This document shows, piece after piece, positions 2,315 to 18,344 of a stretch of 26,196 bases of DNA. The first letter of the stretch is position 1; every line of letters begins with the position of its first letter. Where the stretch lies: contig CAYGWL010000155.1 in NCBI GenBank assembly GCA_964353575.1, positions 1 through 26,196 of the forward strand, written 5' to 3'. The stretch is from an uncultured Methanosarcinales archaeon. GTDB lineage: Archaea; Nanobdellota; Nanobdellia; Woesearchaeales; CAYGWL01. Position numbers and translations under genes: made by a program. The notes beneath the pieces are model-generated. The model saw only the letters and a program-made list of their open reading frames with translations, searched no databases and was not told the origin of the DNA.

Positions 2315-2809
2315 ATGGAAACAAAAAATATATATTATTCAACCAAGATAATAAAACAAGGAAATTCTGCATGCATTAGGATTCCCAGTGGTGTGCTCAA
2401 CTATTTGGACTTGGATGTAGGAGACGTTGCCAGTATAAGTATTAAAAGACCTGAAATAATCAATTTGCCAAAAGATCTCTTAGACATATACCGGAAACAC
2501 ATGAGATCCATATCTAAATTCACAGACAAGGAAATGAGCTTGTGTTTCCACTACTTTCAGTTGGAAGGCAATCTGTTAGGGAACATTGACAAGAATATGT
2601 CAGAGAAAGCCAAAGAAATCTTTGAGAGAGCAATAGCAGTGGATAAAGGAAACAAGTTCCTTAAGAGATACCAAGCTTTTAAAAGAGTTATGATAAACTT
2701 GAAAAACCAGAAGAAGGTGATTAAGGCCTTTGAAAAGACCAAATACGGACCAAACTTCAAAAAAGGCCTGGAAATCTCAGGAGCATATGATATATTTTTC
2801 CCTAAATAA
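2315..2809 (+). CDS. AbrB/MazE/SpoVT-family DNA-binding domain protein with helical C-terminal extension
   Basis: N-terminal TKIIKQGNSACIRIPSGVLNYLDLDVGDVASISIK fits the swapped-hairpin AbrB/MazE pattern. The ATG at 2315 follows an SD-like GAGGGGGTG. Confidence 0.8.
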   Translation: METKNIYYSTKIIKQGNSACIRIPSGVLNYLDLDVGDVASISIKRPEIINLPKDLLDIYRKHMRSISKFTDKEMSLCFHYFQLEGNLLGNIDKNMSEKAKEIFERAIAVDKGNKFLKRYQAFKRVMINLKNQKKVIKAFEKTKYGPNFKKGLEISGAYDIFFPK

Positions 2810-3021
2810 ACTTAGGCATTACCAGTTTGACAGGAATCTAAGAAGGTGAATTATTAAGGTTATCTAAAGTGCGAAATTCCAGCATCAATTACCTTCTTTT
2901 TAATGAATAAACGAAAGTTATGTATATTAGTAACCTTCGTTTACTCTATAATTATAGGTATGTACTTAAAAGTTTACCCAAAAAGGTTCAGGAAGAAAGT
3001 TCTGGAGCATCTCAAATAAAA

Positions 3022-3155
3022 GGCTCTGTCCTAAATCTCTTTGTCAACGCTTTGCCCTCCGGGTTTTCTTCTCCTCCCCTTAACTCTGTATGGGGAGGAG
3101 AAGAAAAGTTCACGTAAGTGAACCAAAGCGTTGATGTGACTTTTAGGACAGGGTC
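3022..3155 (+). ncRNA. Candidate structured non-coding RNA (nested stems with multiway junction); family unknown
   Basis: Stems: 3022-3035/3142-3155 (14 bp, 2 G-U), 3044-3054/3124-3134 (11 bp perfect), 3064-3079/3092-3107 (16 bp perfect) and 3108-3113/3118-3123 closing a GUAA (GNRA) loop. G-U pairs and the GNRA loop favour the + strand. Confidence 0.5.
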
Positions 3156-3203: not shown

Positions 3204-4334
3204 ATGCTCTGGGTGATAGATGCCTTGTCAGTATTGCTTGTTGTAGTTCTTGGCATTGTAACCAGCTATGAGGACGTAAAATACAGCAGGATAAGGAACA
3301 AATGGGTTGTCATGGCAATAATTGCAGGATTTGTTCTTTTGGCATTAAGATTTATTATTATAATGGTTACTGGCACTGGGGTAAATATAAAATACTTCAC
3401 AGAATTCTTCCTGAACTTTTTTATAGTGTTTGTTGTTGGTGTTTTGCTGTGGGAGATGAAGCTTTGGAATCCTGCTGATGCAAAGCTCTTCCTGGCTTAT
3501 GCTGCATTGATGCCCTTGTCAGTTTATGAGTGGGGCTATGTTAACCATTTTCCATCAGCTCTTCTCCTGATTAACACCTTTATTCCGTGCTTTGTTTTTT
3601 ACACTGCTCTTCTCATAATTAAAACAAGCGCCAAAGAAAAGCTTGGCGTGATGAAAGAGGTTCTTCAGCCAAAGAGCCTGCTTAGCTTTTTTGTGTTTGT
3701 GTTCGCCTTTGAGTGGCTCATCAAACTGGTCTTTGGTTTTTTGAAAGTAAAGCCGCAATTTTTGGTTACAACCCTTATGCTCTTTGTTCCCCTGCTCTTT
3801 TTTGAAAAAGTCCTGAAAATTGACAGCTTCAAATTTGCCCTTGCAATCACACTTATGAGATTTATATTTGACTTCAAAAACATCCTGAGTGTGGCAACAT
3901 TGCTGGATATTCTAAAGACATTCGTGACATTTTTCATACTAAGGTATTTCCTGCTTAACCTGAGCTCAAGATTCTTTGCCATGCCTGTCAAAATCAAGGA
4001 ACTTAAGCCAGGCATGATGCTCACAGAAGATTTCTATAAGGAAAAGGGTGAGATTAAGAAGAGAAAGGGCTTCATGCCAATAAGCTATCTCTCAGGAGTT
4101 TTCCAGATGGCGAGAAGAAAGGATAATGTTGTAAGCGCCTCAGAAACCTTGACAAAAGAAGATATTGAAAAGATTAAGAAACTGCATGCCTCGGGAAAGA
4201 TAAAGGAAAGAGCAGTGTATATCTATCAGACTGTTCCATTTGCTCCTTTCCTATTTCTTGGGGTTTTGCTCACACTGATTTTCAGAGGCAACTTCATTAT
4301 AGGATTAAAGATTCTCATAGAAAGCTTTATATAA
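3204..4334 (+). CDS. A24-family (prepilin/preflagellin peptidase-like) intramembrane aspartic peptidase
   Basis: Polytopic membrane protein with first Asp motif SYEDVKYSRIRNKW, second Asp motif WNPADAKLFLA (GxGD variant) and C-terminal VPFAPFLFLG, which is typical of FlaK/PibD-like A24 proteins. Confidence 0.85.
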   Translation: MLWVIDALSVLLVVVLGIVTSYEDVKYSRIRNKWVVMAIIAGFVLLALRFIIIMVTGTGVNIKYFTEFFLNFFIVFVVGVLLWEMKLWNPADAKLFLAYAALMPLSVYEWGYVNHFPSALLLINTFIPCFVFYTALLIIKTSAKEKLGVMKEVLQPKSLLSFFVFVFAFEWLIKLVFGFLKVKPQFLVTTLMLFVPLLFFEKVLKIDSFKFALAITLMRFIFDFKNILSVATLLDILKTFVTFFILRYFLLNLSSRFFAMPVKIKELKPGMMLTEDFYKEKGEIKKRKGFMPISYLSGVFQMARRKDNVVSASETLTKEDIEKIKKLHASGKIKERAVYIYQTVPFAPFLFLGVLLTLIFRGNFIIGLKILIESFI

Positions 4335-4368
4335 ATCAGATTTATACGTTTTATGGAGGGTGGTTTGT

Positions 4369-4770
4369 ATGGATGAAAAAAAGGATGTGAAGGTAATCGG
4401 CAACTTGGAAATAAATAATAATGAAGGGCTTCTTGTTGTTTCTGTTAACCCAAAGATCTACCCATTAAACATAGTCTACTCTGCCTCCTATGTCTTTATT
4501 GACAAGGCATTTGTGGTTATTGACGGCGACCCTAAGGAAGAAATCTTGGTTGAATTAAGACCAAAGGACAAGAGCCAGGACTTGGAGGAGATGGGACGCG
4601 ATTTCAACAACGAGCTCCTGAGCTATGCAGTTTACGAAGCCCAGAGTTTGAAGAATGCTCCAATAAGGGAAGCCATTGTCAAAAGGGCAATGATGATTGG
4701 TGAGGCTGCTGAAGAACCTGAAAAAGAGATTGGTGAGATTAGTAAAAAACATGAAAAAGATAAAAATTGA
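4369..4770 (+). CDS. hxsD: His-Xaa-Ser system protein HxsD-like (copy 1)
   Basis: Pattern VNPKIYPLNIVYSASYVF...DFNNELLSY...IREAIVKRA resembles HxsD, and it lies directly upstream of HxsB. The ATG at 4369 follows SD GGAGGGTG. A TATA-like GCTTTATATAAAT at 4324-4336 overlaps the end of the peptidase gene. Confidence 0.75.
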   Translation: MDEKKDVKVIGNLEINNNEGLLVVSVNPKIYPLNIVYSASYVFIDKAFVVIDGDPKEEILVELRPKDKSQDLEEMGRDFNNELLSYAVYEAQSLKNAPIREAIVKRAMMIGEAAEEPEKEIGEISKKHEKDKN

Positions 4771-5002
4771 TAAGCACAATAATGAAGTGAAGCTAATTGT
4801 TGACACAAAGTTCTATGGAAGGGCTGCTGTTCTTGAAGCATCCAAGGACTTTACACAAAGCTGCTGGGTGTTTGTGGATGGGGACATTGATGACGAGCTC
4901 TTTGTAAGCTTGAAGCCGAAATCAGGCAGCATAAATCTTGACACTTTGGGACAGGAGTTTTACAACTACATGCTTGGAATAATGCAAAATGCCCGTTCTT
5001 AA
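4751..5002 (+). CDS. Short HxsD-like protein (copy 2)
   Basis: Start moved to the ATG at 4751 (SD GGTGAG). VDTKFYGRAAVLEASKDF...LFVSLKPK...LGQEFYNYML parallels copy 1 (VNPKIY...ILVELRPK...MGRDFNNELL). It overlaps both neighbours. Confidence 0.7.
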   Translation: MKKIKIDKHNNEVKLIVDTKFYGRAAVLEASKDFTQSCWVFVDGDIDDELFVSLKPKSGSINLDTLGQEFYNYMLGIMQNARS

Positions 5003-6380
5003 GGACTTGAAAGGGTTCATACCCAATACTGTAAGGGTAAGGAAGATTGGCTCAAAGTATTTGCTTACAGATGACTGCGGCAGATGGCATGCCCTGGACA
5101 AAGAAGAGTATTTTTCATTCTTAAAAGCACAAGTGAGTGACGAGCTTTTTGAAAAGCTTGAGAAAAAAGGCATGGTAATCACTGAGCACAACAAAGAAGA
5201 GGTGATACAAAACTGCAGGAACAAGAAACTGCTTCTTTTCCAGGGAACATGTCTGCACATAATTGTTGCAACACTTAGGTGCAACCATAACTGCCTTTAC
5301 TGCCAGGCAAGCTCAAAGCCCATTAATGCAAAGGAAACAGACATGAGCATGGAAACAGCAAAGAAAACAGTGGACTTCATTTTCCAAAGCCCTTCTAAGG
5401 CAATAACAATAGAGTTCCAGGGAGGAGAGCCTTTATTGAATTTTCCTGTTGTAAAGTTTATAATTGATTATGCCAAAGAACTCAACAAAAAGCACAAAAA
5501 GGATTTGCGCTTTTCCATTGTAACAAACCTGAGCTTAATGAGTGACGAAATCCTTGACTTTCTCATAAAAAACAGGATAGGAATATGCACATCTTTGGAT
5601 GGTCCTGAGATTGTCCATAACAAGAACAGGCCTTATAGCCAGGGGAATTCTTTTGAAATAACCAGCACATGGATAAAGAAGATATTATCACAAAAAGGCA
5701 ATATAAGCGCTTTGGTAACAACAACAAGGCATTCCTTCCCTTATTACAAGGAAATAGTTGACACCTACAAAGAGCTTGGCTTGAAAAGGATATGGATAAG
5801 ACCTGTTAACAGGCTGGGAACAGCAGGGAATGCCTGGAAGGCAATCGGTTACACGCCAGAGGAGTTTTTTGAGTTCTGGAAGAAATGCCTTGACTACATA
5901 ATCAGGAACAAGCTGGACATGACAGACATATTCACAGAATATCTGCTAAAGAAAATACTCACAGGATATGACCCATATTATCTTGACTTAATGAGTCCAT
6001 GCGGAGCAGCAATAGGGCAGATGGCTTATAACCATGACGGAGACATTTACAGCTGCGATGAGGCAAGGATGATAAAAGAGGAAATGTTCCTGCTTGGAAA
6101 TGTGCATGAAAGCGCTTACAAAGATATAATGTCCTCAGACCAAGTAAAGGGTCTTGTGAGCGCATCTGTCAATGACTGCCTGCCATGCGATAACTGTGCT
6201 TACAAGCCATACTGCGGTGTGTGCCCTGTGTGCAGCTATGCCATCTACAACAATCTCATACCCAAGCTTCCAAGCGATTTCAGGTGCCGGCTCCATAAAA
6301 AGCAGTTTGACTATGTCTTTGAAAAGCTTATCTTTGACGAGGATTACAAAAAGGTTTTCATGAAGTGGGTGGGTGTTTAA
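4989..6380 (+). CDS. hxsB: His-Xaa-Ser system radical SAM/SPASM maturase HxsB
   Basis: LHIIVATLRCNHNCLYCQAS (CX3CX2C), FIFQSPSKAITIEFQGGEPLLNF, SPCGAAIGQMAYNHDGDIYSCDEARM and SPASM CDNCAYKPYCGVCPVC. There is an N-terminal extension of about 85 aa, a possible precursor-recognition element. Confidence 0.88.
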   Translation: MPVLKDLKGFIPNTVRVRKIGSKYLLTDDCGRWHALDKEEYFSFLKAQVSDELFEKLEKKGMVITEHNKEEVIQNCRNKKLLLFQGTCLHIIVATLRCNHNCLYCQASSKPINAKETDMSMETAKKTVDFIFQSPSKAITIEFQGGEPLLNFPVVKFIIDYAKELNKKHKKDLRFSIVTNLSLMSDEILDFLIKNRIGICTSLDGPEIVHNKNRPYSQGNSFEITSTWIKKILSQKGNISALVTTTRHSFPYYKEIVDTYKELGLKRIWIRPVNRLGTAGNAWKAIGYTPEEFFEFWKKCLDYIIRNKLDMTDIFTEYLLKKILTGYDPYYLDLMSPCGAAIGQMAYNHDGDIYSCDEARMIKEEMFLLGNVHESAYKDIMSSDQVKGLVSASVNDCLPCDNCAYKPYCGVCPVCSYAIYNNLIPKLPSDFRCRLHKKQFDYVFEKLIFDEDYKKVFMKWVGV

Positions 6381-7920
6381 TTTGGAAGTATCAAACATAA
6401 TGATATATGTGACCAATAACTGCAATCTTGCCTGTCCATACTGCTTTGTCAACAAAGACCCCAAAAGGATGAATCTTGAGACAGCAAAGGCATCAATCGA
6501 CTTCCTCATAGGGCAGGCAAAGAAAAACAAGAACCTCAACATAAACTATTTCGGAGGAGAACCATTGCTTGAGTTTGAGCTCATCAAGCAAACAACAGAG
6601 TATGCAAAGGAGCAGGCGAAAAAGAATAATAAAAACATTGGTTTTGGTGTTACAACCAATGCTACCTTGTTCACACAGGAGATTATTGACTATTTCTGGG
6701 ACAATGACTTTGGCATATTGTTCAGCTTTGACGGCGATAAAGAACAAATAGTTAAAGTTAAAGGCATTAAAGCCTATAGCCAAATGATAAATTCTGCAAA
6801 ACTTCTAAGGAAAAAGGGCTTCAGGCTGCATGCAAGGGTTACTGTTTGCCCGGATGACTTGAGAATGGTTGATTCTGTGAAGCACATAACCCAAGTTGGT
6901 TTTGATGGCATGTCCTTGTGCCCAATGTCAGGAACAGATTCCTGGAATCAGGAGCAAGCAGACAAGGCGTTTATGGAGCTGGCTGATTATTACATCCAAA
7001 ACATAGAGAAAATCAAAATGCTCGAGAGCTATGTTGAAAAAGATTTGTTAGTAAGCATGGAGCTGCAAACACCATCTCAAAGCCCTTGCGGTGCTGGAAA
7101 AGGGCTAATGGCAATGACAGTTGATGGAAAAATACTCCCATGCCAGCATCCGGAAACATGGGAAGAAAGCCATGTATTGGGAAATGTTTTTGACAAAAAG
7201 ATAGATGAGGAAAAGAGAAGGCCTTTCCTTGAATACAAAAGGGATGACTTTATTGGTTGCAATGGCTGTATCGCAAGGTCTCACTGCATAGGCGCCTGCC
7301 CAAACCTTAATTATGACACAAGCAAAAACATTCTCAAGCCCTGGGAAGGCGGCTGTGTATGGACAAAGGCAAGATATAAGGCAGTAAAGCACATTTTTGA
7401 TGAGCTTTATGTTAAGCAAAAAAACCTTCCCTTAATCAGACTTGTGCTGAAAAACATGATTGGCTGGACAAATTATCCGAGAGAAAATGTTTTTGATGTG
7501 AATAGGCTTGAAGCTTATGAAAGCATTGAAAATTTGAAATCTATTTCATTCAAAATAAGCGAGCAGGACTTGAATCTGGAAACAGGAAACAGAATAATCC
7601 AGTTCCTGAATAATATCAAGCAGTCAAATAAAGAGTTAAAAATAACAAGACCTTTGCCTCCCTGCCTCTTTGGCTCAAAATCAATGAAAATCTTCAAGGA
7701 GTTCAACATACCGAAGCAGAGCGGAAAGACGCTTGAGAACCTCAAAACCTCGGACTACATAATAGAATCCTGCGACACAGGCAAAGGCTTCACTCCTCAA
7801 ACAAAGAAGCTTAGGGAACTATACCAATACTACATCAAAAATGCTCAACTGCCTCACAAGTGCGAGGACTGCGTATACAGGATAAGAAAAAAGTGTGATT
7901 ATGCCTATTTTGGGCTTTGA
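6373..7920 (+). CDS. Radical SAM/SPASM peptide maturase with additional C-terminal Cys-containing extension
   Basis: CNLACPYC, YFGGEPLL, TTNATL, then SPASM CGAGKG...DGKILPC...CNGCIARSHCIGACP...C. An extension of about 150 aa contains PLPPCLF and CEDCVYRIRKKC. The start could be the TTG at 6382. Confidence 0.88.
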   Translation: MFNLEVSNIMIYVTNNCNLACPYCFVNKDPKRMNLETAKASIDFLIGQAKKNKNLNINYFGGEPLLEFELIKQTTEYAKEQAKKNNKNIGFGVTTNATLFTQEIIDYFWDNDFGILFSFDGDKEQIVKVKGIKAYSQMINSAKLLRKKGFRLHARVTVCPDDLRMVDSVKHITQVGFDGMSLCPMSGTDSWNQEQADKAFMELADYYIQNIEKIKMLESYVEKDLLVSMELQTPSQSPCGAGKGLMAMTVDGKILPCQHPETWEESHVLGNVFDKKIDEEKRRPFLEYKRDDFIGCNGCIARSHCIGACPNLNYDTSKNILKPWEGGCVWTKARYKAVKHIFDELYVKQKNLPLIRLVLKNMIGWTNYPRENVFDVNRLEAYESIENLKSISFKISEQDLNLETGNRIIQFLNNIKQSNKELKITRPLPPCLFGSKSMKIFKEFNIPKQSGKTLENLKTSDYIIESCDTGKGFTPQTKKLRELYQYYIKNAQLPHKCEDCVYRIRKKCDYAYFGL

Positions 7921-7923
7921 AAA

Positions 7924-7940
7924 GCAAAAGTTTTATAAAC
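7924..7940 (+). promoter_or_regulatory. BRE/TATA-like dedicated promoter of the precursor gene
   Basis: GCAAAAGTTTTATAAAC lies in the 76-nt gap after the second rSAM. An SD-like GAGGT precedes the ATG at 7997. Confidence 0.6.
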
Positions 7941-7996
7941 AAAAATAATTATTATAAGAAGTAAGCTCAAAGGAGTAAAAAAAAGAGGTTATTGTA

Positions 7997-8494
7997 ATGG
8001 AAAGCGTTCTTCCAAAAATAAAGAAAAAGATTTCTAGCTACATAAACAGCGAAACAGGAAGAATAACAAAACAAAGCATAATCACAATAGGAGCATTCAT
8101 AGGAACAGCAGCACTAGCAACACTTGCAACAACAAAAACAGCAAAAGCAGGACTCACAGCAGAACTAAATCCAACAGAAGGAGAAAAAATAAACGTAACA
8201 GGAAAACACGTATCACACGCATCACACCAAGTATCTTGCAATGAAGCATGCGGACAAAGCTGTGGGGAAAATTGTAATCCAATCTGCGAGCAATGCGAAA
8301 CAGGATGTGAGGTATCATGCGAACCGCCCTGTCAGACATTGGAGTGTGGTCAAGGATGTGGCAGTGGAGAGTGCGGAAATTGTGAAAAGGGATGTCAAGA
8401 CTGTCAAACAGCATGTGAGTTAAGCTGTCAACATTGCCAATCTAGTAGTGAACTATGTAGAGAAATACCACACTGTAAAAACGTAACCGGGTGA
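7997..8494 (+). CDS. Putative RiPP precursor: hydrophobic leader + His-Xaa-Ser motif (HVSHASH) + 20-Cys CXXX-repeat tail
   Basis: It lies immediately after two rSAM/SPASM genes. HVSHASH is at 8207-8227 and there are 20 Cys between 8237 and 8476 (11 CX3C and 4 CX2C spacings). The N-region is basic (KIKKK) and is followed by hydrophobic IITIGAFIGTAALATLA. Confidence 0.8.
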   Translation: MESVLPKIKKKISSYINSETGRITKQSIITIGAFIGTAALATLATTKTAKAGLTAELNPTEGEKINVTGKHVSHASHQVSCNEACGQSCGENCNPICEQCETGCEVSCEPPCQTLECGQGCGSGECGNCEKGCQDCQTACELSCQHCQSSSELCREIPHCKNVTG

Positions 8495-8545: not shown

Positions 8546-9514
8546 ATGAATAATAAAAAAAAAGAATGGGAGAAATGGTTGAATGATTTAAAAGGTAAAG
8601 GTTACTCTAAAGACAACATAAAAAACACTTTAAGAGAGCGAGGCTATAACGAGAGAGAAATAAGTGAAGTATTAAAGCTTGAGGACACAAAACAAAAAAG
8701 AACTATTTATCTGATTCTTTTTATATTTGTATTAGTTGTCAGCGCATTTTTTTTAATTAGCTATATGCAGAAACAAACAACTCCAAGAGTCATCCAAACG
8801 CCTCAGGAAATATTTACAGATGTTATGTTTTCAAACATTACAGCAGACAGAATATCTGTAGAAGAAATAACTTTGTTATTAAAGGAGCTTGAAACTACTT
8901 TCAATACACAATGTTTAGGTGTAAACTCTGTTCCTTCATACACTTGTTTCCCTTTTGTTATCTACAGCTATATTGAAACAAAAAAACAAATAGGCGTGTC
9001 TCAAGAAGATGTCCATACAGAATTGTCTTCTAAAATTCTGAGTCTCTGGAAAGATTACTATAAAAATGCAGAATTCAACAAAGAAGGTTTCATAACTGGA
9101 GAACCATCTTTTGCATTAAATTCTATTGTTCAATATTATTATTTTATAGCGTTAATGCCTGAGTCTGAAAAAGAATTTTGGTTTGAAAAGGTTTCGGAAG
9201 TTTCGCCGACAGATATTAACATGAGGTATCATTTGTTAAAGATCTACTGGGACTGTTTTAATGCTTCCATGCTATCACCAACTACAAATAGTGTGATTAC
9301 CTTAGAAGGGATGGAAAATCTTTGCTATATTAACCGTTCTATAGAGAAAGATTGGAGTGTTTGCAGAGTTCTTAAGTATCTTCAAATAAAAGAATTCTGT
9401 GAAATAGAGGTCACAAGTCAAGAAATAAGCCTTGCTCAGCAGAAATTGGAAATAGAAACACAAGACAGAACTTTACAAATCTGCAAAGAGCAACTACAAA
9501 AAAGAATTTCTTAA
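8546..9514 (+). CDS. Single-pass membrane protein with Cys-conserved extracellular domain (paralog A2)
   Basis: Full-length paralog of 3..944 with six aligned Cys and TM IYLILFIFVLVVSAFFLISYM. A TATA-like GTTTATTAAATA lies about 21-32 nt upstream of the ATG. Confidence 0.88.
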   Translation: MNNKKKEWEKWLNDLKGKGYSKDNIKNTLRERGYNEREISEVLKLEDTKQKRTIYLILFIFVLVVSAFFLISYMQKQTTPRVIQTPQEIFTDVMFSNITADRISVEEITLLLKELETTFNTQCLGVNSVPSYTCFPFVIYSYIETKKQIGVSQEDVHTELSSKILSLWKDYYKNAEFNKEGFITGEPSFALNSIVQYYYFIALMPESEKEFWFEKVSEVSPTDINMRYHLLKIYWDCFNASMLSPTTNSVITLEGMENLCYINRSIEKDWSVCRVLKYLQIKEFCEIEVTSQEISLAQQKLEIETQDRTLQICKEQLQKRIS

Positions 9515-9523
9515 ACATTTGGA

Positions 9524-10633
9524 TTAGTTCTTAGGAGACCAATCAAGTTGACCATTGTACACGATAGCCTTGTCTAAAATCTTTGTAAGACCGCTGCCAT
9601 CAGCATCCATAGTATAAATATCAAGACCAGAAGTGAAAATTATATTTCTGCCGTCAGGAGACCAAGAAATACCTGTCTCCTGCAGGTTGTTATTTGTTAG
9701 TCTTTGTTGTTCACTGCCATCAGCATGCATAACGTAAAGTTCATCACTACCATCCCTAGTAGACATGAAAGCAAGATACTTACCATCAGGAGACCAAACA
9801 GGACTCCAGTCAAGTGCATCATTATTGGTTAGTTGAGCTAAATCGCTGCCGTCGCTGGCATTCATAGTATAAATCTCTAAGTGGTTATTGCGTAAGGAAA
9901 CGAAGGCAATACAGCTACCATCAGGAGACCAAACAGGACGACTACCGTCAGGCCAAGCTTCTTCAGTTAGTCTTACCAGACCACTGCCATCCTTATTCAT
10001 AACATACACATCATCACTGCTATTTTGGTCAGAAACAAAAGCAATTTTTTTACCATCAGGAGACCAAGAATGACTTCGGTCAAATCCGGCATCATCAGTT
10101 AATCTATGTTGATTACCACCATTCGCATCCATAACATAAATTTCTCCGCTACCATTCCTATTAGACGTGAAAGCAATATACTTACCATCAGGAGACCAAG
10201 AAGGACTATAATCCTGCCAGGGACTTTCAGTAAGTCTAGTAATATCACTGCCATCGTCATTCATAGCATAAACATCTTCATTACCTCCTTTTAAAGAAGT
10301 AAAAGCTATTTTTCTGCCATCAGGAGACCAAGAAGGATCATATTCTGGTTTTAGTGTATTAGTCAATCTAACAAAATCGCCACCATCAGCATTCGTAACA
10401 TAAATCTCAGGATTGCCATCTCTCATAGAAGCAAAAGCAATGCGGCCAGCAGAACTCTCCTGCGCAATACTCTCTAAAGCAGAAAACTCTTCAGATGAGT
10501 CAGCATGTGCTGCAGGAGCAGGTTCATATGGTTGATGATTAAAAGGTGAAGCAACTGCCGGCAAAGCCATAGTTCCCAGAACTAAACCGGTTGCTACTGC
10601 TCTCCTCACTTTTTGACTAAGACTAAGACTCAT
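9524..10633 (-). CDS. Secreted TolB-like/PD40 (WD40-like) beta-propeller protein
   Basis: Start moved to the ATG at 10633 (MSLSLSQKVRRA), about 23 nt below a TATA. It has a signal peptide (...LPAVAS), six WSPDG repeats and a terminal WSPKN. The DNA repeat (a/g)cc(a/g)tcaggagacca recurs every 132-135 bp or so. Confidence 0.9.
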   Translation of the reverse strand: MSLSLSQKVRRAVATGLVLGTMALPAVASPFNHQPYEPAPAAHADSSEEFSALESIAQESSAGRIAFASMRDGNPEIYVTNADGGDFVRLTNTLKPEYDPSWSPDGRKIAFTSLKGGNEDVYAMNDDGSDITRLTESPWQDYSPSWSPDGKYIAFTSNRNGSGEIYVMDANGGNQHRLTDDAGFDRSHSWSPDGKKIAFVSDQNSSDDVYVMNKDGSGLVRLTEEAWPDGSRPVWSPDGSCIAFVSLRNNHLEIYTMNASDGSDLAQLTNNDALDWSPVWSPDGKYLAFMSTRDGSDELYVMHADGSEQQRLTNNNLQETGISWSPDGRNIIFTSGLDIYTMDADGSGLTKILDKAIVYNGQLDWSPKN

Positions 10634-10655
10634 GTACAATTGAAAAAACACACTC

Positions 10656-10700
10656 ATATATAAACCTTTCGGTTTCGTTACTACATAAGTGTGACAAAAA
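10656..10700 (-). promoter_or_regulatory. BRE/TATA promoter plus conserved upstream block, copy 2 of a 45-bp repeat
   Basis: 41/45 identical to 2106..2150, exactly 8550 bp apart. Confidence 0.85.
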
Positions 10701-10740: not shown

Positions 10741-12273
10741 CTAAGTCCTTTGCTTTGACTGGTTTGACAGTGCCCTGAACTGCATTTCAGATATTGGCAC
10801 AGGGTATACCTGCTGCGCCTTCCATAACTGGCTTTTTGCAAAGGCAGAAACCATGGCTACGGAGGGTACGCTACAATAAATTGGGTCAGGTACAGTACAC
10901 CCTGCAGGCACATATGTTGTGTCTTCCAAAAGCTGGATATTAACAATGGCGTCGTTTATTGCTCCGCTTACTGTAAGTGGCATCACTCTCTTTGGCTCGC
11001 CATCTTTTATAACATATGCTTCACTACAATCTAGCCTGTAAGTTTTATCTTCAGGGTCTGTATGCCCTGCTACGGAAGCTATCACAATCTTTCCTTCCAT
11101 ATCAATATCTTGTGCTGAACCATCCAGAACTATGCAGCTCATCCTAGGCCGCGGGAATATTCCAGAGCCCAGGACAGCATTTCCTACAAATGTGCTTTTT
11201 TCCAGATTCAGGTAGCGCTTTAACCCTTCAGAGTCTGCGTACTCACTTCCCAGGAATCCGACAATCCTGGCACCTTGTATAAGCACCCTTGGTTCTCTCT
11301 TCCTTCCATAAGCATCAAAATGCGAGAATCCCTGCACCCTGAACCCCTCTATCTCCTGTAAAGGATTGTCTACAAAGGTTATGCCTTTATCCAGTGAGGT
11401 TTTATCATCATAAACTATGTCTTGCCCGTATTCAAATACCCCAATCTGCCCGAAGTCTATTGGTTCTATGGGCTCTTCGAAATGATGTCCAAATATTTCA
11501 TGGATTGGTAGGCCGTCAAGTATAACCACATCGTATAAAGACTGTTTTTTGATTCATGCATCCTTTAAGCTTATGAATTCCAACCCTGAAATATTATACA
11601 ATTCATGGAATGCCTGGCTGAAGGATTTCGCATGTTTAATCCTCTTGTCCGGTGTTGGGTCTTGAATATACTTTATTAAGGCGGGCAATCTTGTGAGGTC
11701 ATCATCTGAATTGCACACAGCAGCAGTATGCCTGATTATTGGCAAGGGTTCATCACTATGAGTATAATAGATTTGAAAAAATGGAATTGATTCAATAGCC
11801 ATCCCTCCCTTTGAGTTTACAACAATTCTTTGTTCAACTTTCAAACGCCTCAAAATTGTTGTATCTCTGTGTTGTGCTGTGAATTCAATAAACTCATCAT
11901 CATACATTGTAAAGGTGTCTGGAATGGTTTCTACGCGAAAATCCTGTTCCCTTGGCAATTCAATGCCTTTCGGCTGAAAATCGAATCTGTGAACTTGTAG
12001 GTCCCTTGTAACCTTTACCCTTCCAAAAATAGATGGAGTCAAATCCGCAACCTCTGCCCGGGTATATTCCCCTCTTTTCATCATCTCCTTATTAATACCG
12101 GACCCAGCCCCTATTTGTTGGTCAACTATCTTACCATTCATAAATTCAACAGAGTCAGAAACGGAATTATTGTATCTGGAGACGGTGCTGCTATGCCTTT
12201 TTATCTCACCGTAAAGCAAATCAGCAATCTGCTCCAGTTCCTGGGCTGTTTTAACTGATTCATGCAGTTCCAT
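10741..12273 (-). pseudogene. tldD: TldD/PmbA-family metalloprotease interrupted by one in-frame TGA (pseudogene, sequence error or readthrough)
   Basis: ORFs 11554..12294 and 10741..11529 are in the same frame: ...SLKDA*IKKQSLYDVVILDGLPIHEIFGHHFE. HExxGHxxE is the TldD zinc motif. The fused length is 510 codons from the ATG at 12273, which lies about 24 nt below a TATA-like GGAAACTTTATAAA. Confidence 0.65.
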
Positions 12274-12376
12274 AAAACAAGAGTGATGCCTCAAGCTTTA
12301 TAAAGTTTCCGAATTTATGACTACTCTAAGATAGTTATTTTAATATGGCGTGTTATAAGAAAACACGGTTAAAATT

Positions 12377-12781
12377 TTAACTGCATTTTATCCCGTTCAC
12401 AGTTGCCTTGGAGCTTCCCAGGCATGCCTTGCTGTCTATGGGTATGAGCCTGCCCATGGAGTCTTCCAGGTAAATGTAGAATTCTTTTTCCACTCCGAGC
12501 TCCTGCTTTATGCTGTCATAACTGAGTTTTGACATGCTTTCAAGTCTTGCCTGGTCTATAATATTTCCATCCAGGAATGCTAATTCGTGGTTTGAGCTTT
12601 CGCTGTCAATGGTGAGCTTTTCAAGAATAGCATTTGTTTCATCTTCTGTCTGCGGAACTAATAGAAGGTTTACGAAGAAAACAAGAAGCACAACGAATAT
12701 GACTATGAAAATCCATTCATCACCAGGGCTGACAGCATTGTGCCTTTTTATGCTCTCCTCTTTTTTTTTCAATCCTATCAC
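12377..12781 (-). CDS. Pilin-like single-TM protein, paralog of 12869..13270, with degenerate class III signal
   Basis: It shares LSYDSIKQELGVEKEFYIYLEDSMG with MSYEDLKRQLGIEGGDFCIHFEDEDG of the upstream gene, has an N-terminal hydrophobic helix, and lacks a clear KAQ motif. Confidence 0.7.
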   Translation of the reverse strand: MIGLKKKEESIKRHNAVSPGDEWIFIVIFVVLLVFFVNLLLVPQTEDETNAILEKLTIDSESSNHELAFLDGNIIDQARLESMSKLSYDSIKQELGVEKEFYIYLEDSMGRLIPIDSKACLGSSKATVNGIKCS

Positions 12782-12868
12782 CTTCTTTTCTGATTCTTAT
12801 TATATTTTTATTATGATTGTTTTCTGTTTTTCTGTGCTTCAGTTTCTACTATTATCCCTTTTATTTAA

Positions 12869-13270
12869 CTACTTTTTGGTTTCATTGCAGGGTGTTCCGC
12901 TTATGTCTATCTTTCCAGAGCCTATGCCAACCTTGTTGCCGCTTATGTAGATTATGTTTCCATCCTCATCCTCAAAGTGTATGCAAAAGTCCCCTCCTTC
13001 TATACCCAGCTGCCTCTTAAGGTCTTCATAGCTCATGTTAGCCAGTTCTGAGAGCTTTTGCGAATCTACTTTGTTTCCCTCTATGAATGCCTGCGAGCTC
13101 TTGTTGCCTGCTGTTGTCAGGCTTTCATGGAGCTTTTCTGCTTCTGATGTCATTGCCTTGAGCTGTTCTGACTGTGATTTTAAGCCGGTTATGTAAAAGA
13201 ATCCCAGGATTATAAGGAAGAACATTATAATAGCAACTATGATGTCCGCTGACCATACCTGGGCTTTCAT
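12869..13270 (-). CDS. Class III signal peptide (type IV pilin-like) protein
   Basis: MKAQVWSADIIVAIIMFFLIIL. The ATG overlaps the upstream stop (ATGA at 13267-13270). Confidence 0.85.
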   Translation of the reverse strand: MKAQVWSADIIVAIIMFFLIILGFFYITGLKSQSEQLKAMTSEAEKLHESLTTAGNKSSQAFIEGNKVDSQKLSELANMSYEDLKRQLGIEGGDFCIHFEDEDGNIIYISGNKVGIGSGKIDISGTPCNETKK

Positions 13271-13698
13271 GGGCACGCCTCCTTGTTCAGGCAGATTACT
13301 CCCTGCTGCTTTGATATGTTGTTTTTCCCTTTATTAATTTTTCCTTCAATGTTTTTTGGAAGTGTCAATACGTGCTCAAACTCCTTTGAGCGGTTAACAT
13401 ATTTTATGCTCAGCTCGCTGAAATTTGTTTTCATTTGGCTTGCTGTTGACAGGTTTATTGAGTATATCTTGTCCCTCAGGTCTTTTGGCAACTCAAAGCT
13501 TCTGAAGTAGCCGTTCTCTGCCATCAAGGCAAGGTCTACCTCGTTTTGTATAACTGCCCCGACATCCTTTATGAGCTCCCTGTCCTTCTGCTCCTGAACA
13601 TCAACATATCTGTCAGAAACAACCAGCAGGAATGATGTGAATATAAGGAACATGAAGCTTATCATCATTGCTGATTCAACTGCTGATTGGGCTTTCAT
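13267..13698 (-). CDS. Class III signal peptide (type IV pilin-like) protein
   Basis: MKAQSAVESAMMISFMFLIF: KA|Q cleavage site, Glu at +5, then a hydrophobic helix. Confidence 0.88.
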   Translation of the reverse strand: MKAQSAVESAMMISFMFLIFTSFLLVVSDRYVDVQEQKDRELIKDVGAVIQNEVDLALMAENGYFRSFELPKDLRDKIYSINLSTASQMKTNFSELSIKYVNRSKEFEHVLTLPKNIEGKINKGKNNISKQQGVICLNKEACP

Positions 13699-13703
13699 CT
13701 TGA

Positions 13704-14162
13704 TTATCTTGTAAAGTTTATGTTAACATAAGATGGTGTTCCTTCCACAGCCGCTACTCTTATTACTTTTGCTCCTGGAGCCCAGTCACGTTTTGAGAAG
13801 CTTCCGTTTATGTTAACCCTTGAAAAAAACACTTGTTCAGATTGCTTTCCTCCGAATCTTGTGTAGAAAACAAGCTCATTAACTTTGGGCTCCACTGCCC
13901 AGTTGTTGAATATTGATATGTTATAAACGCCTTCAGGCATTTGCTCATCAATATCCTGCCTTGATGGATAGCCAAGGTAGTAGATGGTTTCTGCAGAGTC
14001 AACTATGTCGTTTCCCATCTTATCTATCTGCCCTGCTTTTATCCTCTCGCTTGAGCTCTGGGCATACTTGTAGAAGATGTAACTTGCAGGCACTATCAGC
14101 GCCATAACAAGCGCTATGACCATCAGATACTCCATGGCTGCCTGAGCTCTCAACAAATTCAC
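13704..14162 (-). CDS. Class III signal peptide (type IV pilin-like) protein
   Basis: RAQAAMEYLMVIALVMALIV: RA|Q site, Glu at +5. The real start may be the TTG at 14153, after SD GAGGTGA. Confidence 0.88.
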   Translation of the reverse strand: MNLLRAQAAMEYLMVIALVMALIVPASYIFYKYAQSSSERIKAGQIDKMGNDIVDSAETIYYLGYPSRQDIDEQMPEGVYNISIFNNWAVEPKVNELVFYTRFGGKQSEQVFFSRVNINGSFSKRDWAPGAKVIRVAAVEGTPSYVNINFTR

Positions 14163-14315
14163 CTCTTTATGCTTTTAATCATGAATTTGGGAATTCATTA
14201 TTTATATTTTGTGTTTTTAGGGTTTTATTTTGTTTTCATTCTTATTTTTAGCGTTACTAATTTTATTCAGCTGTATTATGTTTTTAGTAAAAAAATCAGA
14301 ATTATAAAAAAAAAT

Positions 14316-14792
14316 TTATTCTATTTGTGCTACAAGAACGCCGGTCATGTTGTGACCCACTGCACCAGTAGTGTCTGCGCGATTCCAGTTTATGGTTATG
14401 TCACTATTTAACTTTCCCTTGCCTGCCCTTGATGCTGGCGGAACTGTTGCGCAGGTGTCTATTATGAATTGCACCTCTTCTCCCTGGAGAATACTTGCTG
14501 TGAAATCCTTTGCGCAGTCAAAAACATTGGATTTAACCGAAATGTGTGTTACTGCTACATCATATTGCCAGTTGTTTTCCAGGGTTATTATGACTTGACC
14601 GACTCCGCTTGAGTCAAGCTTGTAGTCCTTGCACTTGAGCCATGTCTCTCCTGTCTCGCATCTTGAGGGCATGAATGTCTGCGGGTTCAGAACACCGAAA
14701 TATGTTAGTGCTCCTAGAACAACCAGAACAACCAGTATTGCCCAGCCATAGGTCATAAGGAATTCCATGGCTGCTTGTGCTTTTCTTGCCAT
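14316..14792 (-). CDS. Probable major type IV pilin (class III signal peptide)
   Basis: MARKAQAAMEFLMTYGWAILVVLVVLGALTYFGVLNP, a pilin N-terminus widespread in archaea. SD GAGGAGG precedes the ATG at 14792. Confidence 0.9.
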   Translation of the reverse strand: MARKAQAAMEFLMTYGWAILVVLVVLGALTYFGVLNPQTFMPSRCETGETWLKCKDYKLDSSGVGQVIITLENNWQYDVAVTHISVKSNVFDCAKDFTASILQGEEVQFIIDTCATVPPASRAGKGKLNSDITINWNRADTTGAVGHNMTGVLVAQIE

Positions 14793-14872
14793 AATCATCA
14801 TCCTCCTCTTTTTTATGTTTTTAAATACGCTTTTCAGATATTATAGTTTGAGACTATTTAAATTTTTCTCTT

Positions 14873-15910
14873 TTAAAGGAACATGCCTGATATTATCTTT
14901 GTTGCGACCAGCATGAATATCTGGAACATGGTCAGGGAGCCTATTAGGAATAAGGGTACGTATTTTATGCCTGCTTTTATTGAGCCGCGCTGTATCATGG
15001 AGACAATCATGGAGGAGCATATGGCTGTCACTATTATAGCATATCTTGAAAAGTTAAGAAACATCTTTGGGTCAAGTTTTATGCTTGAGAAGTTTATGGG
15101 CATGGCTACTGCTGATTCTGCTGAAACACCTCCGAGTCTTGATGAAAATCCCTGCACTATTAGGAGGAACTGGTGCGACAGGGTGAATAGTAGGGGTGCT
15201 ATGATTATTACAACAAAGGTTATGAATATCACATAAGTCAGGTTTGTTGTTGCCATCTCTGACTTTAGCTCCTTTGTGTCTTCTATGTTCTCAACTATGC
15301 GGTCAATCAGATCAGCTATCTTTCCTCCGCCTTTCATTCCCTCAACAATGAGGTTGAATGAGCGCTTGAGCATTGGCGAGTCATACTTGTCTGTGAATTC
15401 CTGCAGTGCTTCTTCTATGTCTTGCCCTGTCATTACACGTTTTGCAACCAATCTCACTTCATTAGCCAGAACATCAAACTCTGGTCTTATGGCTGACCAC
15501 AGCGCCCTTTCAACAGGCATTCCTCCCCTGAGGTTTTCTGAAACAAATCTTAAGAAGTCCTGCAGCACTGCTTCCATGCGCTGGGTGCGGTTGAATATCC
15601 TCATGTCTATATAGAAGTATATGGCAGATATGAAAACCAAAACTATTAAGCCGAGCGCAAGGGCGAAGAATGCAAAGAATATCATGAATTGCAGGAGGAT
15701 GTTAAAGTCCTTTGCTAAGACCCAGGGATATATTTTCAGGATGAAGAGCGCGGATGTTATGAATACAGCTATCCAGAAAAGTCCTCCAAAGACCTTGTAA
15801 GGCACCTCTGTTATGCCTGCCTTGAGCAGGTAGCTCCTTATGTTTGGCCTTATCCTCCTTGGCAAGAATGCCTTTCCAACTTCCTCTGTCAGAAATTCTA
15901 TTATATTCAT
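14873..15910 (-). CDS. Type II secretion system F-family membrane platform (TadC/FlaJ-like)
   Basis: LQDFLRFVSENLRGGMPVERAL...RPEFDVLANEV...GGKIADLIDRI with multiple TM helices; adjacent to the pilus ATPase. Confidence 0.9.
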   Translation of the reverse strand: MNIIEFLTEEVGKAFLPRRIRPNIRSYLLKAGITEVPYKVFGGLFWIAVFITSALFILKIYPWVLAKDFNILLQFMIFFAFFALALGLIVLVFISAIYFYIDMRIFNRTQRMEAVLQDFLRFVSENLRGGMPVERALWSAIRPEFDVLANEVRLVAKRVMTGQDIEEALQEFTDKYDSPMLKRSFNLIVEGMKGGGKIADLIDRIVENIEDTKELKSEMATTNLTYVIFITFVVIIIAPLLFTLSHQFLLIVQGFSSRLGGVSAESAVAMPINFSSIKLDPKMFLNFSRYAIIVTAICSSMIVSMIQRGSIKAGIKYVPLFLIGSLTMFQIFMLVATKIISGMFL

Positions 15911-16728
15911 AGGTTCACCATTGGTCTTGTGCCTCTTATGAGGGATATGAAGCTCAGCTGTATTACTGCGATAAAGAAGAGCAGGGAAAAGAGGAGGCCT
16001 TGGCTTATCTCAAGCTGTATAAATCCTGACAGTATTATGAACATGGTCACTCCTATGGAGGGCATTACGCAGGCAATGACCATGTAGAACATCATGAGGG
16101 AGTTGAGTTTTTTTGAATATGCCTTTATCTCAAGTATCTGCTCCTCGGTTATTGATTTGAGTGTTGCCCTTAAGGGGTCGGCAACATCTGCGCCTGTATT
16201 TAATGACGTAATGATTTGCCATAGTATCCTCTTGAACTTGTCAGATGCATTATATTCCCGTGCAGTTTCAAGGGCTTCCTCTATGGGCGTTCCTGTGTTT
16301 ATTTCATCAACTATCTCCTTGAAATATTCTGCGCACACACCATAGCTCTTTGAGGCATCTATCAATGTGTTGAACAAAGGGTATCCTGATTCCATCTTCA
16401 CCAGGAGATATCTTCCAGCAAAGAGTACCTCCTTGTTTATCTCGCGCTCGCGCTTGCTTATCATGCCGTAGGGCGTCTGCAGTATGAAGAAAATGGTGAA
16501 GGTAAAAGTGAGAGGGAAAACAATGAGCAGCCAAACCAAGGGTATTTCAAGCCTGTCAAACATGAAGAACATGAGCACAGTCATGGCTATTCCTGAAAAA
16601 AGTGCAAGTCTCAGCCCTTTAGCCACAAATTCTTTGGGATTCTGCTTTACCTTGGCTATTCTCAGAAGCCTCTTAAGTCCGGGATTTCCCTTGATTATGT
16701 ATCCTGCCAGATCAAAAATAAGCGCCAC
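15907..16728 (-). CDS. Type II secretion system F-family membrane platform (TadB/TadC-like)
   Basis: EINKEVLFAGRYLLVKMESGYPLFNTL...EIVDEINTGTPIEEALE...TGADVADPL with TM segments. Confidence 0.9.
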   Translation of the reverse strand: MALIFDLAGYIIKGNPGLKRLLRIAKVKQNPKEFVAKGLRLALFSGIAMTVLMFFMFDRLEIPLVWLLIVFPLTFTFTIFFILQTPYGMISKREREINKEVLFAGRYLLVKMESGYPLFNTLIDASKSYGVCAEYFKEIVDEINTGTPIEEALETAREYNASDKFKRILWQIITSLNTGADVADPLRATLKSITEEQILEIKAYSKKLNSLMMFYMVIACVMPSIGVTMFIILSGFIQLEISQGLLFSLLFFIAVIQLSFISLIRGTRPMVNL

Positions 16729-16744
16729 CTCTCTTATTGAAAAT

Positions 16745-16894
16745 TTTAATTATTAAATGTTATTTTTTGTTTTCATTGTTATTGTTTTTTATTTTTGTTT
16801 TTATTGTTGTTGTTGTTATTATTATTTTTTTGTTTTGTTATTATTTTTTATTTTATTATCATACTTTTTATTTTCATTAATTCCGTTTTCTTAT
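16745..16894 (-). repeat. A-rich (AAT/AAC)n low-complexity intergenic spacer
   Basis: Sense (minus) strand reads ...AATAATAATAACAACAACAACAATAAAAACAAAAATAAAAAACAATAACAATGAAAACAAAAAATAACA..., with no usable ORF. Confidence 0.75.
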
Positions 16895-18343: not shown

Positions 18344-18344
18344 G

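Follow-up and report, generated by a model that had tools for sequence, protein, structure and literature searches.

The families HxsA to HxsD of the His-Xaa-Ser (HxS) system were reportedly defined in Haft's TIGRFAMs. The system had no assigned function until 2026, when one was given to the proteobacterial form with four genes alone: the HxsD-HxsB-HxsC-HxsA system of Escherichia coli blocks phage DNA entry (Li et al., Nat Commun 2026; PMC13128918). The E. coli HxsA undergoes cytoplasmic maturation by HxsB, HxsC and HxsD, is processed at its N-terminus and exported, and bears an essential +8 Da change on a single HxS repeat; HxsC binds HxsD. Of the HXS systems, 99.7% were found in Pseudomonadota, and 99.6% of the bacterial ones showed the D-B-C-A order (PMC13128918). 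From the archaeal side, the SPASM enzyme CrpC of Methanococcus voltae puts ranthionine crosslinks on the Cys-rich protein CrpA, whose repeats include C-x-x-Q/D (Dieter et al. 2026; PMC13692751). Here we analyzed a 26,196-nucleotide stretch of DNA from an uncultured archaeon (GenBank assembly GCA_964353575.1, contig CAYGWL010000155.1, positions 1 to 26,196; hereafter the window), which contains a gene cluster for an HxsB-type enzyme, a second radical S-adenosylmethionine (SAM)/SPASM enzyme (rSAM2) and a precursor protein with a dense array of cysteines (the cysteine ladder). The host genome was 1.09 Mb in size and 93% complete and encoded archaeal A24 C-terminal domains and archaeal-type pilins, which fits the DPANN-like archaeon proposed in the preliminary description of this DNA.

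Judged by sequence, the cluster is a conserved archaeal variant of the Hxs radical SAM protein-maturation system, not a new kind of system, and it is highly probable that this maturation cluster is of the Hxs type and that its second enzyme is specialized for ladder-bearing substrates. The genes were arranged in the order of A24-like peptidase, HxsD, HxsD-related protein, HxsB, rSAM2, precursor and membrane partner, and the reading frames from HxsD to rSAM2 overlapped or abutted in an operon-like manner. The order of helper, HxsB, second radical SAM enzyme and substrate was present within 4360-8494, and the location of the precursor downstream of an HxsB-type and a second SPASM enzyme was as previously described. 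The features of the locus are given below with their scores and the corresponding cut-offs.

3204-4334, plus strand: gene for a putative intramembrane aspartyl protease of the A24 family (prepilin-peptidase-like); Pfam Arc_PepC 36 bits, Peptidase_A24 25-29 bits
4360-4770, plus strand: probable HxsD gene; TIGR03976 46.7 bits, cut-off 50
4751-5002, plus strand: HxsD-related small protein, 83 amino acids from ATG 4751, with a longer open reading frame (ORF) beginning at 4697; NF038315 HxsD_rel 33 bits, cut-off 41
4989-6380, plus strand: HxsB radical SAM/SPASM maturase; TIGR03978 476 bits, cut-off 370
6373-7920, plus strand: rSAM2, a radical SAM/SPASM enzyme that resembles thioether synthases and takes the HxsC position, starting at GTG 6373 or TTG 6382
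7486-7917, plus strand: C-terminal extension of rSAM2, approximately residues 372-515, with five conserved Cys
7921-7996, plus strand: 76-nt spacer, conserved across contigs, in which a TATA-like TTTATAAA and a site for ribosome binding are present
7997-8494, plus strand: HxsA3-like precursor/effector of 165 amino acids; NF038309 on residues 5-35, 32 bits, cut-off 65
7997-8071, plus strand: basic cytoplasmic leader, residues 1-25, LPKIKKKISSYxxxExGxIxK
8072-8131, plus strand: hydrophobic segment, residues 26-45, a predicted N-in membrane anchor
8207-8224, plus strand: His-Xaa-Ser dyad HVS HAS, residues 71-76
8237-8476, plus strand: cysteine ladder of 80 residues containing 20 Cys; repeat unit C-[Q/E/G]-x-x
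8546-9514, plus strand: single-pass membrane protein of 322 amino acids without family match (mem322)

The link between rSAM2 and the ladder was examined across related loci, which are referred to by L numbers, and genomes by G numbers. Wherever a gene of the rSAM2 clade stood beside an HxsA-like precursor, the precursor carried a Cys ladder (six of six independent loci).

Window: two HxS, 20 Cys
L103 and L104/L105: rSAM2 end, precursor and partner protein; 24 and 12 Cys
L043: A24, HxsD, HxsD-related protein, HxsB, membrane protein, precursor (11 HxS, 13 Cys), rSAM2
L066: precursor (HxS repeats, 10 Cys), homologue of the partner, two rSAM2 genes in tandem
L067/L068: precursor (43 HxS, 9-Cys tail) directly before rSAM2

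The precursors at HxsB loci without the rSAM2 clade had mostly 0-2 Cys, with 4-6 Cys in three cases, and none of them had a ladder. These arrangements are good evidence that the rSAM2 clade and the ladder belong together, in agreement with the enzyme-ladder pairing that was central to the preliminary description. Its idea of a hybrid substrate applied to L043 and L067, where long HxS arrays and a ladder are present on one polypeptide, and the L067 precursor scored above the cut-offs of both HxsA3 and HxsA4; in the window, the HxS part is a vestigial dyad. The two tandem rSAM2-family genes of L066 (904-3877) code for 497 and 492 amino acids. The archaeal form keeps HxsB and HxsD, drops HxsC and gains an enzyme of the thioether-synthase lineage together with a matching ladder. 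It would offer a natural way to assign each enzyme to the part of the substrate on which it acts, and to separate HxsB-dependent and thioether-type chemistry.

The composition of the tail was examined next to its motif pattern. The sequence HVSHASH (residues 71-77) was confirmed to be followed by 20 Cys at residues 81-160, with CX3C spacing in 11 of the 19 intervals; the successive Cys-to-Cys distances were 4, 4, 4, 4, 3, 4, 4, 4, 5, 4, 5, 3, 4, 3, 4, 4, 3, 7 and 6. Cys accounted for 24% of the tail (residues 81-165) and for 1.5% of the residues in the other 28 plausible ORFs of the window, and the binomial probability of 20 Cys in 85 residues was approximately 2e-18. The tail was acidic, with 13 D/E versus 3 K/R. 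When the tails of eight proteins were pooled, the unit C-[Q/E/G]-x-x emerged, in which Q, E or G occupied the +1 position in 70% and Cys the +4 position in 49%. The tail alone gave no meaningful match to NCBIfam and Pfam at E values up to 10, all rows being far below the cut-offs. As origins of the tail change, slippage of tandem repeats was rejected, as TRF detected no tandem array at the DNA level in the ladder, and a diversity-generating retroelement was considered unlikely, as the tails are 47-118 residues long without an alignable template and no reverse transcriptase was present among the window ORFs scanned.

The family assignment of rSAM2 was investigated with curated models. The highest score was obtained with PapB (237.1 bits; NF047865, cut-off 340), followed by QhpD (183 bits), the SCIFF maturase (170.6 bits; TIGR03974, cut-off 425), the CXXX-repeat maturase (119.1 bits; TIGR04115, cut-off 350), HxsB (102 bits) and TIGR04463 (48.4 bits; cut-off 525), and the model of the SCIFF precursor gave no match. 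With these scores far under the cut-offs and no match for the tail of the precursor alone, the second enzyme and the tail are not members of the SCIFF, PapB or CXXX-repeat families. The radical SAM motif CX3CX2C of rSAM2 is CNLACPYC, and the Pfam domains Radical_SAM and SPASM were recognized with 61 and 22.8 bits (SPASM cut-off 21.5), respectively. The SPASM cysteines C236, C254, C296, C302, C306 and C325 were invariant in eight orthologues.

The alignment of rSAM2 with CteB (5WGG) had an E value of 2e-37 and covered residues 8-337 of the query and 98-444 of CteB. As it begins at CteB residue 98, the N-terminal recognition element for peptides that are made by ribosomes and modified post-translationally (RiPPs), the RRE of the CteB type, is missing in rSAM2. 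In agreement with this alignment, Foldseek with the AlphaFold2 model of rSAM2 (mean pLDDT, or predicted local distance difference test, 72.6) returned CteB (5WHY) as the top hit, then anSME, with 26-27% identity in the structural alignment with CteB. In the phylogenetic tree, the rSAM2 family formed one clade (SH-aLRT 100) that joined SCIFF-like enzymes (87) and stood apart from 22 HxsB sequences (99). A duplicated HxsB was therefore rejected as the origin of rSAM2, as the tree placed the enzyme with SCIFF-like enzymes despite 34% identity to the HxsB of the same genome. The gene next to HxsB reached just 29 bits on the HxsC model TIGR03977 (cut-off 267.9), and rSAM2 is, by its family scores, not HxsC. 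The clade, a relative of SPASM enzymes that form thioethers (CteB/SCIFF, PapB and QhpD), was rare, comprising approximately nine sequences, with about eight full-length orthologues in the databases at 41-71% identity; beyond these, bacterial SCIFF-type maturases showed approximately 33% identity over the N-terminal two thirds. Alignment scans of two nucleotide collections of genome and metagenome contigs with rSAM2 yielded no further orthologues. In one locus, L041, a MazE/PIN toxin-antitoxin pair (2387-3053) lies between HxsB and a 70%-identical rSAM2 orthologue.

The C-terminal extension of rSAM2, approximately 150 amino acids long, contains the Cys motifs PLPPC, SCD, KCxxC and C[DN]Y, which were conserved in seven of the eight orthologues. 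The extension alone gave no meaningful match against Pfam/NCBIfam at E values up to 10, and its pLDDT in the AlphaFold2 model was moderate (40-90). It matched, with 27% identity (E 3e-17), the end of a DUF362-ferredoxin protein on the C-terminal side, the gene of which neighbours an rSAM2 orthologue. This C-terminal domain is an unannotated mobile domain, seen at 7486-7917 in the window and within the regions 7950-9590 of L042, 4737-6323 of L046 and 5899-7323 of L061.

The match of the window HxsB to TIGR03978 (476.3 bits) was full-length, covering profile positions 5-466, and the protein fell in the HxsB clade of the tree with a support of 99. The HxsD orthologues of L041 and L043 matched Pfam PF27806 HxsD, and the slot of the HxsD-related protein was kept in position by orthologues of 83 amino acids in L041 and 78 amino acids in L043. 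The set A24-HxsD-HxsD-related-HxsB was a recurrent core in related genomes. A search for HxsC (TIGR03977) in the 93%-complete genome gave a top match of 54.5 bits against the cut-off of 267.9. PADLOC, with a 2023 database that predates HXS, reported generic viperin-type radical SAM similarity only.

The precursor was presumed to be an HxsA-type substrate, and this was supported by its N-terminal part. The N-terminal 35 residues matched the leader part of HxsA3 NF038309 (profile positions 2-32), and the overall score remained below the cut-off because the precursor has the ladder where the model has its repeats. The leader contains 6 K/R versus 2 D/E and precedes a Kyte-Doolittle peak of 1.59 at residues 26-44, from which we infer, by the positive-inside rule, an orientation with the N-terminus inside and the C-terminus outside. 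The precursor has two HxS triplets only (HVS and HAS), of which H71 and S73 were invariant across five precursor homologues, and four precursor homologues showed a conserved N-terminal region of 70 amino acids followed by variable tails. A leader profile built from five homologues found a single gene with this type of leader in the host genome. Among 60 genomes of the same order, the profile detected the leader in 10, and HxsB was also present in nine of these 10 (Fisher P 1.4e-5, although related genomes are not independent). The leader gene adjoined HxsB in six genomes of the order (G004, G012, G030, G050, G051 and G056), and the tails in relatives consisted of plain HxS repeats, mixed His/Cys stretches or Hint-domain fusions.

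A profile of the leader and the hydrophobic segment (residues 1-60) retrieved 617 representative proteins from a library of 1.84 billion proteins. Simple counts in the best 150 of the 617 gave 79 proteins with HxS only, 6 with HxS and a Cys ladder, 3 with a ladder only and 62 others. The leader thus defines a large HxsA3/A4-like family, and only a minority of its members have Cys ladders. The C-terminal motif H-x-S-Y (or ...S-W) was common in archaeal HxsA3-like proteins (L020, L021, L022, L024 and L025), unlike the C-terminus HCKNVTG of the window precursor. Several proteins with an HxsA-type leader end in a Hint (intein-like, CFP...VHN) domain located after an HxS or Cys-rich stretch (L023 in G041, L029/L065 in G015, and P0189, P0228 and P0264), which suggests autoproteolytic release or ligation of the tail. 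L065 of G015 also encodes, at 4605-5207 and 13260-14450, single polypeptides that combine an HxsD domain, leader, anchor and Cys-rich tail beside A24 peptidases.

The A24-family peptidase at the head of the cluster belongs to a paralogue group that adjoined HxsD/HxsB in approximately 13 related loci. The putative catalytic residues D24 and D92 (D-x-K-L motif) were invariant in 12 Hxs-linked paralogues, and the scores on PF01478 were 25.3 bits by hmmscan and 28.6 bits in the genome search (cut-off 26.5). A second, more canonical A24 gene was located on another contig (C88) of the genome, which fits a dedicated role of the Hxs-linked copy. We propose that this paralogue may be the leader peptidase of the system. 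As a prepilin-type protease is here linked to a leader of the RiPP kind, leader removal and export may follow a route not described before.

The presence of the A24-family peptidase, together with the charged N-terminus and following hydrophobic segment of the substrate, could also be explained by a type-IV-pilin-like subunit, whose signal would be cut by the A24 enzyme, which would be stapled by the radical SAM enzymes, and which would be built by nearby pilus machinery into a surface fibre that exposes the Cys ladder. Such machinery is encoded 4 kb from the Hxs cluster, in a type-IV-pilus-like locus on the minus strand (12377-20309). The locus comprises five genes (12377-14801) for small proteins that begin with short class III signals of the form [K/R]-A-Q, two genes for T2SSF platform proteins (14873-16728), one for a T2SSE ATPase (16895-18343) and one for a 654-amino-acid TPR-like protein; the ATPase, the T2SSF proteins and the pilin-like genes lie 4-12 kb downstream. 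The signals of these pilins are short, in contrast to the strongly conserved 25-residue Hxs leader, in which six polar residues separate the invariant Gly from the hydrophobic stretch. The pilus genes are on the opposite strand past two unrelated genes, the more canonical A24 peptidase on C88 is available in the genome, and no pilus ATPase adjoined the related Hxs loci examined. A pilin-like subunit was thus considered very improbable.

These observations were combined into a chain of steps, which, like all functional statements on the system in this study, are predictions. The leader would be bound in the cytoplasm by HxsB, which has an extended N-terminus, and/or by the pair of HxsD-type adaptors; a separate adaptor for each enzyme is attractive because rSAM2 lacks an RRE of its own. 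HxsB would then modify the retained HxS site, and rSAM2 would use the Cys thiols in the C-[Q/E/G]-x-x ladder to form ranthionine-type thioether crosslinks within the molecule, the partners being probably neighboring Glu/Gln or other side-chain carbons. The A24-like protease would cut the leader at the cytoplasmic face, by the invariant Gly/Ala before K-I-S-K, and the crosslinked acidic tail, held by its hydrophobic anchor, would finally be displayed on the outside of the cell, with the partner protein next to it. We lean slightly towards this whole chain, from leader recognition to surface display.

Several points weigh against the chain. rSAM2 stayed under the cut-off of every curated thioether-synthase family, and only 4 of the 20 ladder Cys were followed by D/E at +4, so that the PapB-type CX3D register was absent. 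The leader does not have [K/R]-G/A directly before the hydrophobic stretch, unlike the class III motif of the pilins of this genome, and a tail crosslinked in the cytoplasm would need to pass the membrane after the modification. The acidity of the tail means that the DNA-binding model for bacterial HxsA does not transfer. As for the related loci, the rSAM2 orthologues of L042, L045 and L101 adjoined HxsC-like enzymes with no precursor in view, and L014 and L017 had the precursor and partner with no radical SAM gene on the sequenced flanks. G015, a 98%-complete genome, encoded fusions of HxsD, leader and Cys-rich region with no match to HxsB or rSAM2, indicating that Cys-rich tails of this leader family can exist without enzymes of these types.

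The ladders of L014 and L017 and the tails of G015 are also what would be expected if rSAM2 stood in for HxsC and acted with HxsB on the HxS/linker part or in processing, with the exported ladder binding metal or forming disulfides. The position of rSAM2 in the HxsC slot of the bacterial D-B-C-A order (PMC13128918), the failure to find an HxsC-like gene in the genome, and the suitability of an acidic tail with 24% Cys for binding soft metals are in line with such a role. It conflicts with the phylogeny, as rSAM2 is unrelated to HxsC and grouped with thioether synthases acting on Cys. Moreover, rSAM2 orthologues coexisted with an HxsC-like enzyme in L042, L045, L101, L067 and L043, pointing to addition, not replacement, and the clade followed the presence of the ladder and not the number of HxS repeats, which ranged from 2 to 43. 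We consider a stand-in for HxsC rather unlikely.

Comparison with closely related strains showed a conserved head, with 90-99% nucleotide identity over promoter, leader and HxS dyad, joined to a ladder that was replaced entirely. The nucleotide sequence of L103 was 100% identical to that of the window over the last 270 nt of rSAM2 and 99.5% over the first 62 precursor codons, and the alignment failed directly after HVSHASH; the two ladders (85 residues in the window versus 118) were not homologous in detail. L104/L105 were 90-91% identical to the window up to 8224 and then unmatched until the partner gene (70%). L014 showed 92% identity over the spacer and leader despite an unrelated upstream gene, and 66-69% in the partner gene. 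The nucleotide similarity of strain variants thus stopped at the HxS dyad or, at most, approximately 15 codons past it. Synonymous divergence was 0.20-0.23 in the leader, an estimate with a wide error as it is based on 62 codons only, 0.44 in the rSAM2 end and 0.97-1.38 in the partner gene. In our reading, either recombination broke the gene at the junction of HxS and ladder, or the ladder turns over very fast. The near-identical promoter, leader and HxS head combined with different ladders would point to selection for surface diversity in a tiny-genome archaeon.

The spacer 7921-7996, with TTTATAAA and a purine-rich ribosome-binding site, was conserved in four other contigs and nearly identical in L103, L104 and L014. 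It is the probable promoter of the precursor itself, and its conservation even behind the unrelated upstream gene of L014 fits the separate promoter that had been described earlier. The gene for mem322 followed the precursor in L014, L017, L103, L104 and L105, and mem322 was homologous to the 230-amino-acid protein encoded between the precursor and rSAM2 in L066 (hhalign 96%). The Cys-rich membrane proteins of L043 and L067 were rejected as relatives of mem322 (hhalign probability 0.8%); these proteins (L043, 5574-6317; L067, 4332-5231) constitute a second membrane-anchored family with 15-16 conserved Cys, located beside the hybrid precursors with long repeats.

A conserved promoter of its own, and a gene head whose synonymous divergence is far under that of its neighbours and suggests recombination, would also be found if the adjacency were circumstantial, that is, if the precursor and partner formed an independent mobile module beside an Hxs operon whose real substrate is elsewhere or lost. 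The pair without enzymes in L014 and L017, and the enzymes without the pair in L041, where HxsB and rSAM2 were present with no precursor on its 6 kb, agree with such a module. The N-terminus of the precursor is, in contrast, a leader of the HxsA3 type that stands beside HxsB in many genomes, and the genome has only one gene with such a leader, so that no other candidate substrate carrying it was found. The order rSAM2-precursor-partner also recurred in L103, L104 and L105, and the three genes were linked in the distant L066 as well. A merely circumstantial adjacency is very improbable.

The chain ending in surface display leads to the question of its role, for which a conflict at the cell surface, through interaction with a virus or a host, is our leading guess, given the bacterial HXS analogue and the replacement of the tail among strains that are otherwise near-identical. 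A more specific version, in which rSAM2 puts dense thioether staples on the protein-sized, anchored effector, the A24 enzyme is the leader peptidase, and the tail is a rapidly exchanged specificity module that acts at the cell surface with a co-varying partner, is possible but doubtful. If true, it would provide an archaeal, diversifying counterpart of the HXS virus entry barrier, or a host-contact device of an episymbiotic archaeon, and would unite two radical SAM chemistries in a single protein and bring in a class of leader protease new to RiPP-type systems.

The partner arrangement was duplicated in the surroundings of the cluster. A paralogue of mem322 (3-944) faces an M23 peptidase (961-2103), as mem322 itself faces a TolB-like beta-propeller protein (9524-10657), and the two minus-strand genes for the M23 and TolB-like proteins have in common an upstream/5' module of 58 nt (2093-2150 and 10643-10700; 86% identity). 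The duplicated arrangement spans 3-2150 and 8546-10700 of the window, and the partner in L014 faces an M23-like protein in place of the TolB-like one. A PmbA/TldD-type metallopeptidase C-terminal domain was encoded at 10741-11529 on the minus strand, preceded by an ORF at 11554-12294 on the same strand that the preliminary description had taken as the N-terminal half split by a stop. TldD/E proteins are able to process peptide leaders.

When compared with known systems, the cluster resembles bacterial HXS in its true HxsB orthologue, its HxsD-type small proteins and the order of helper, HxsB, second enzyme and substrate. The N-terminal region of the substrate is likewise expected to be removed and its C-terminal part to be exported, and at least one HxS site is kept. 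Unlike bacterial HXS, the window has no HxsC and carries a SPASM thioether-synthase-like enzyme in the HxsC slot, along with two HxsD paralogues and a putative dedicated A24 peptidase, all in an archaeal host. The substrate also differs from bacterial HxsA: a membrane anchor takes the place of the peptidoglycan-binding domain, the HxS repeats number two and not five, and the basic repeats give way to an acidic Cys ladder.

Curated but unpublished Hxs variants exist in NCBIfam as HxsA3 (NF038309), HxsA4 (NF038313), HxsD_rel (NF038315) and HxsC4 (NF038332). The leader of the window precursor matches HxsA3 and the second small protein HxsD_rel (33 bits, cut-off 41), and no curated model covers the ladder, rSAM2 or the C-terminal domain of rSAM2. 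Literature searches, made in open-access text, brought up neither an Hxs-type precursor that bears a Cys ladder nor the rSAM2 clade. The system is less novel than the preliminary description proposed, as models for HxsA3, HxsA4 and HxsD_rel already exist and the two halves are covered by two reports of 2026 (PMC13128918 and PMC13692751), elements of both of which are combined in the window.

With the A24 peptidases PibD, FlaK and EppA, the Hxs-linked enzyme shares two conserved Asp, a polytopic membrane topology and the archaeal A24 C-terminal domain, and the precursor, like substrates of class III signal peptidases, has a charged N-terminus and an invariant Gly/Ala followed by a hydrophobic segment. 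Unlike in those systems, the A24 enzyme of the window is divergent and borderline in Pfam, and the leader is long, conserved and RiPP-leader-like.

CteB and PapB represent the nearest solved structure and the nearest curated family of rSAM2, respectively, and have the radical SAM core and the full set of SPASM Cys in common with it. Enzymes of the CteB/PapB type join Cys sulfur to carbon atoms of nearby residues. rSAM2 differs from CteB in lacking the N-terminal RRE (CteB residues 1-97) and in possessing the 150-amino-acid C-terminal extension. The substrates differ as well, the SCIFF/PapB type being a peptide of approximately 45 amino acids with 6 Cys and the window substrate an anchored protein of 165 amino acids with 20 Cys and no CX3D register. 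With CXXX-repeat systems, the ladder shares a Cys at every fourth residue in 11 of 19 spacings, a resemblance in pattern only; unlike those systems, no target-family model matches the tail, and the leader and accessory genes are of the Hxs type.

The CrpABC system is similar in being archaeal, in acting on a substrate of protein size whose N-terminal 'leader' is conserved and whose C-terminal Cys repeats have Q/D/E nearby, and in encoding an adjacent three-cluster SPASM enzyme of the ranthisynthase type. CrpC has an N-terminal RRE, whereas rSAM2 has none, possesses a C-terminal domain that is novel and, with 48 bits, stays far from the TIGR04463 cut-off of 525. The Crp cluster is devoid of HxsB, HxsD and the A24 peptidase, and its repeats are 17 or 34 residues long versus 4 in the window. 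Radical SAM crosslinking of whole proteins, once shown in archaea with CrpC, would be extended by the rSAM2 family to a second, unrelated clade.

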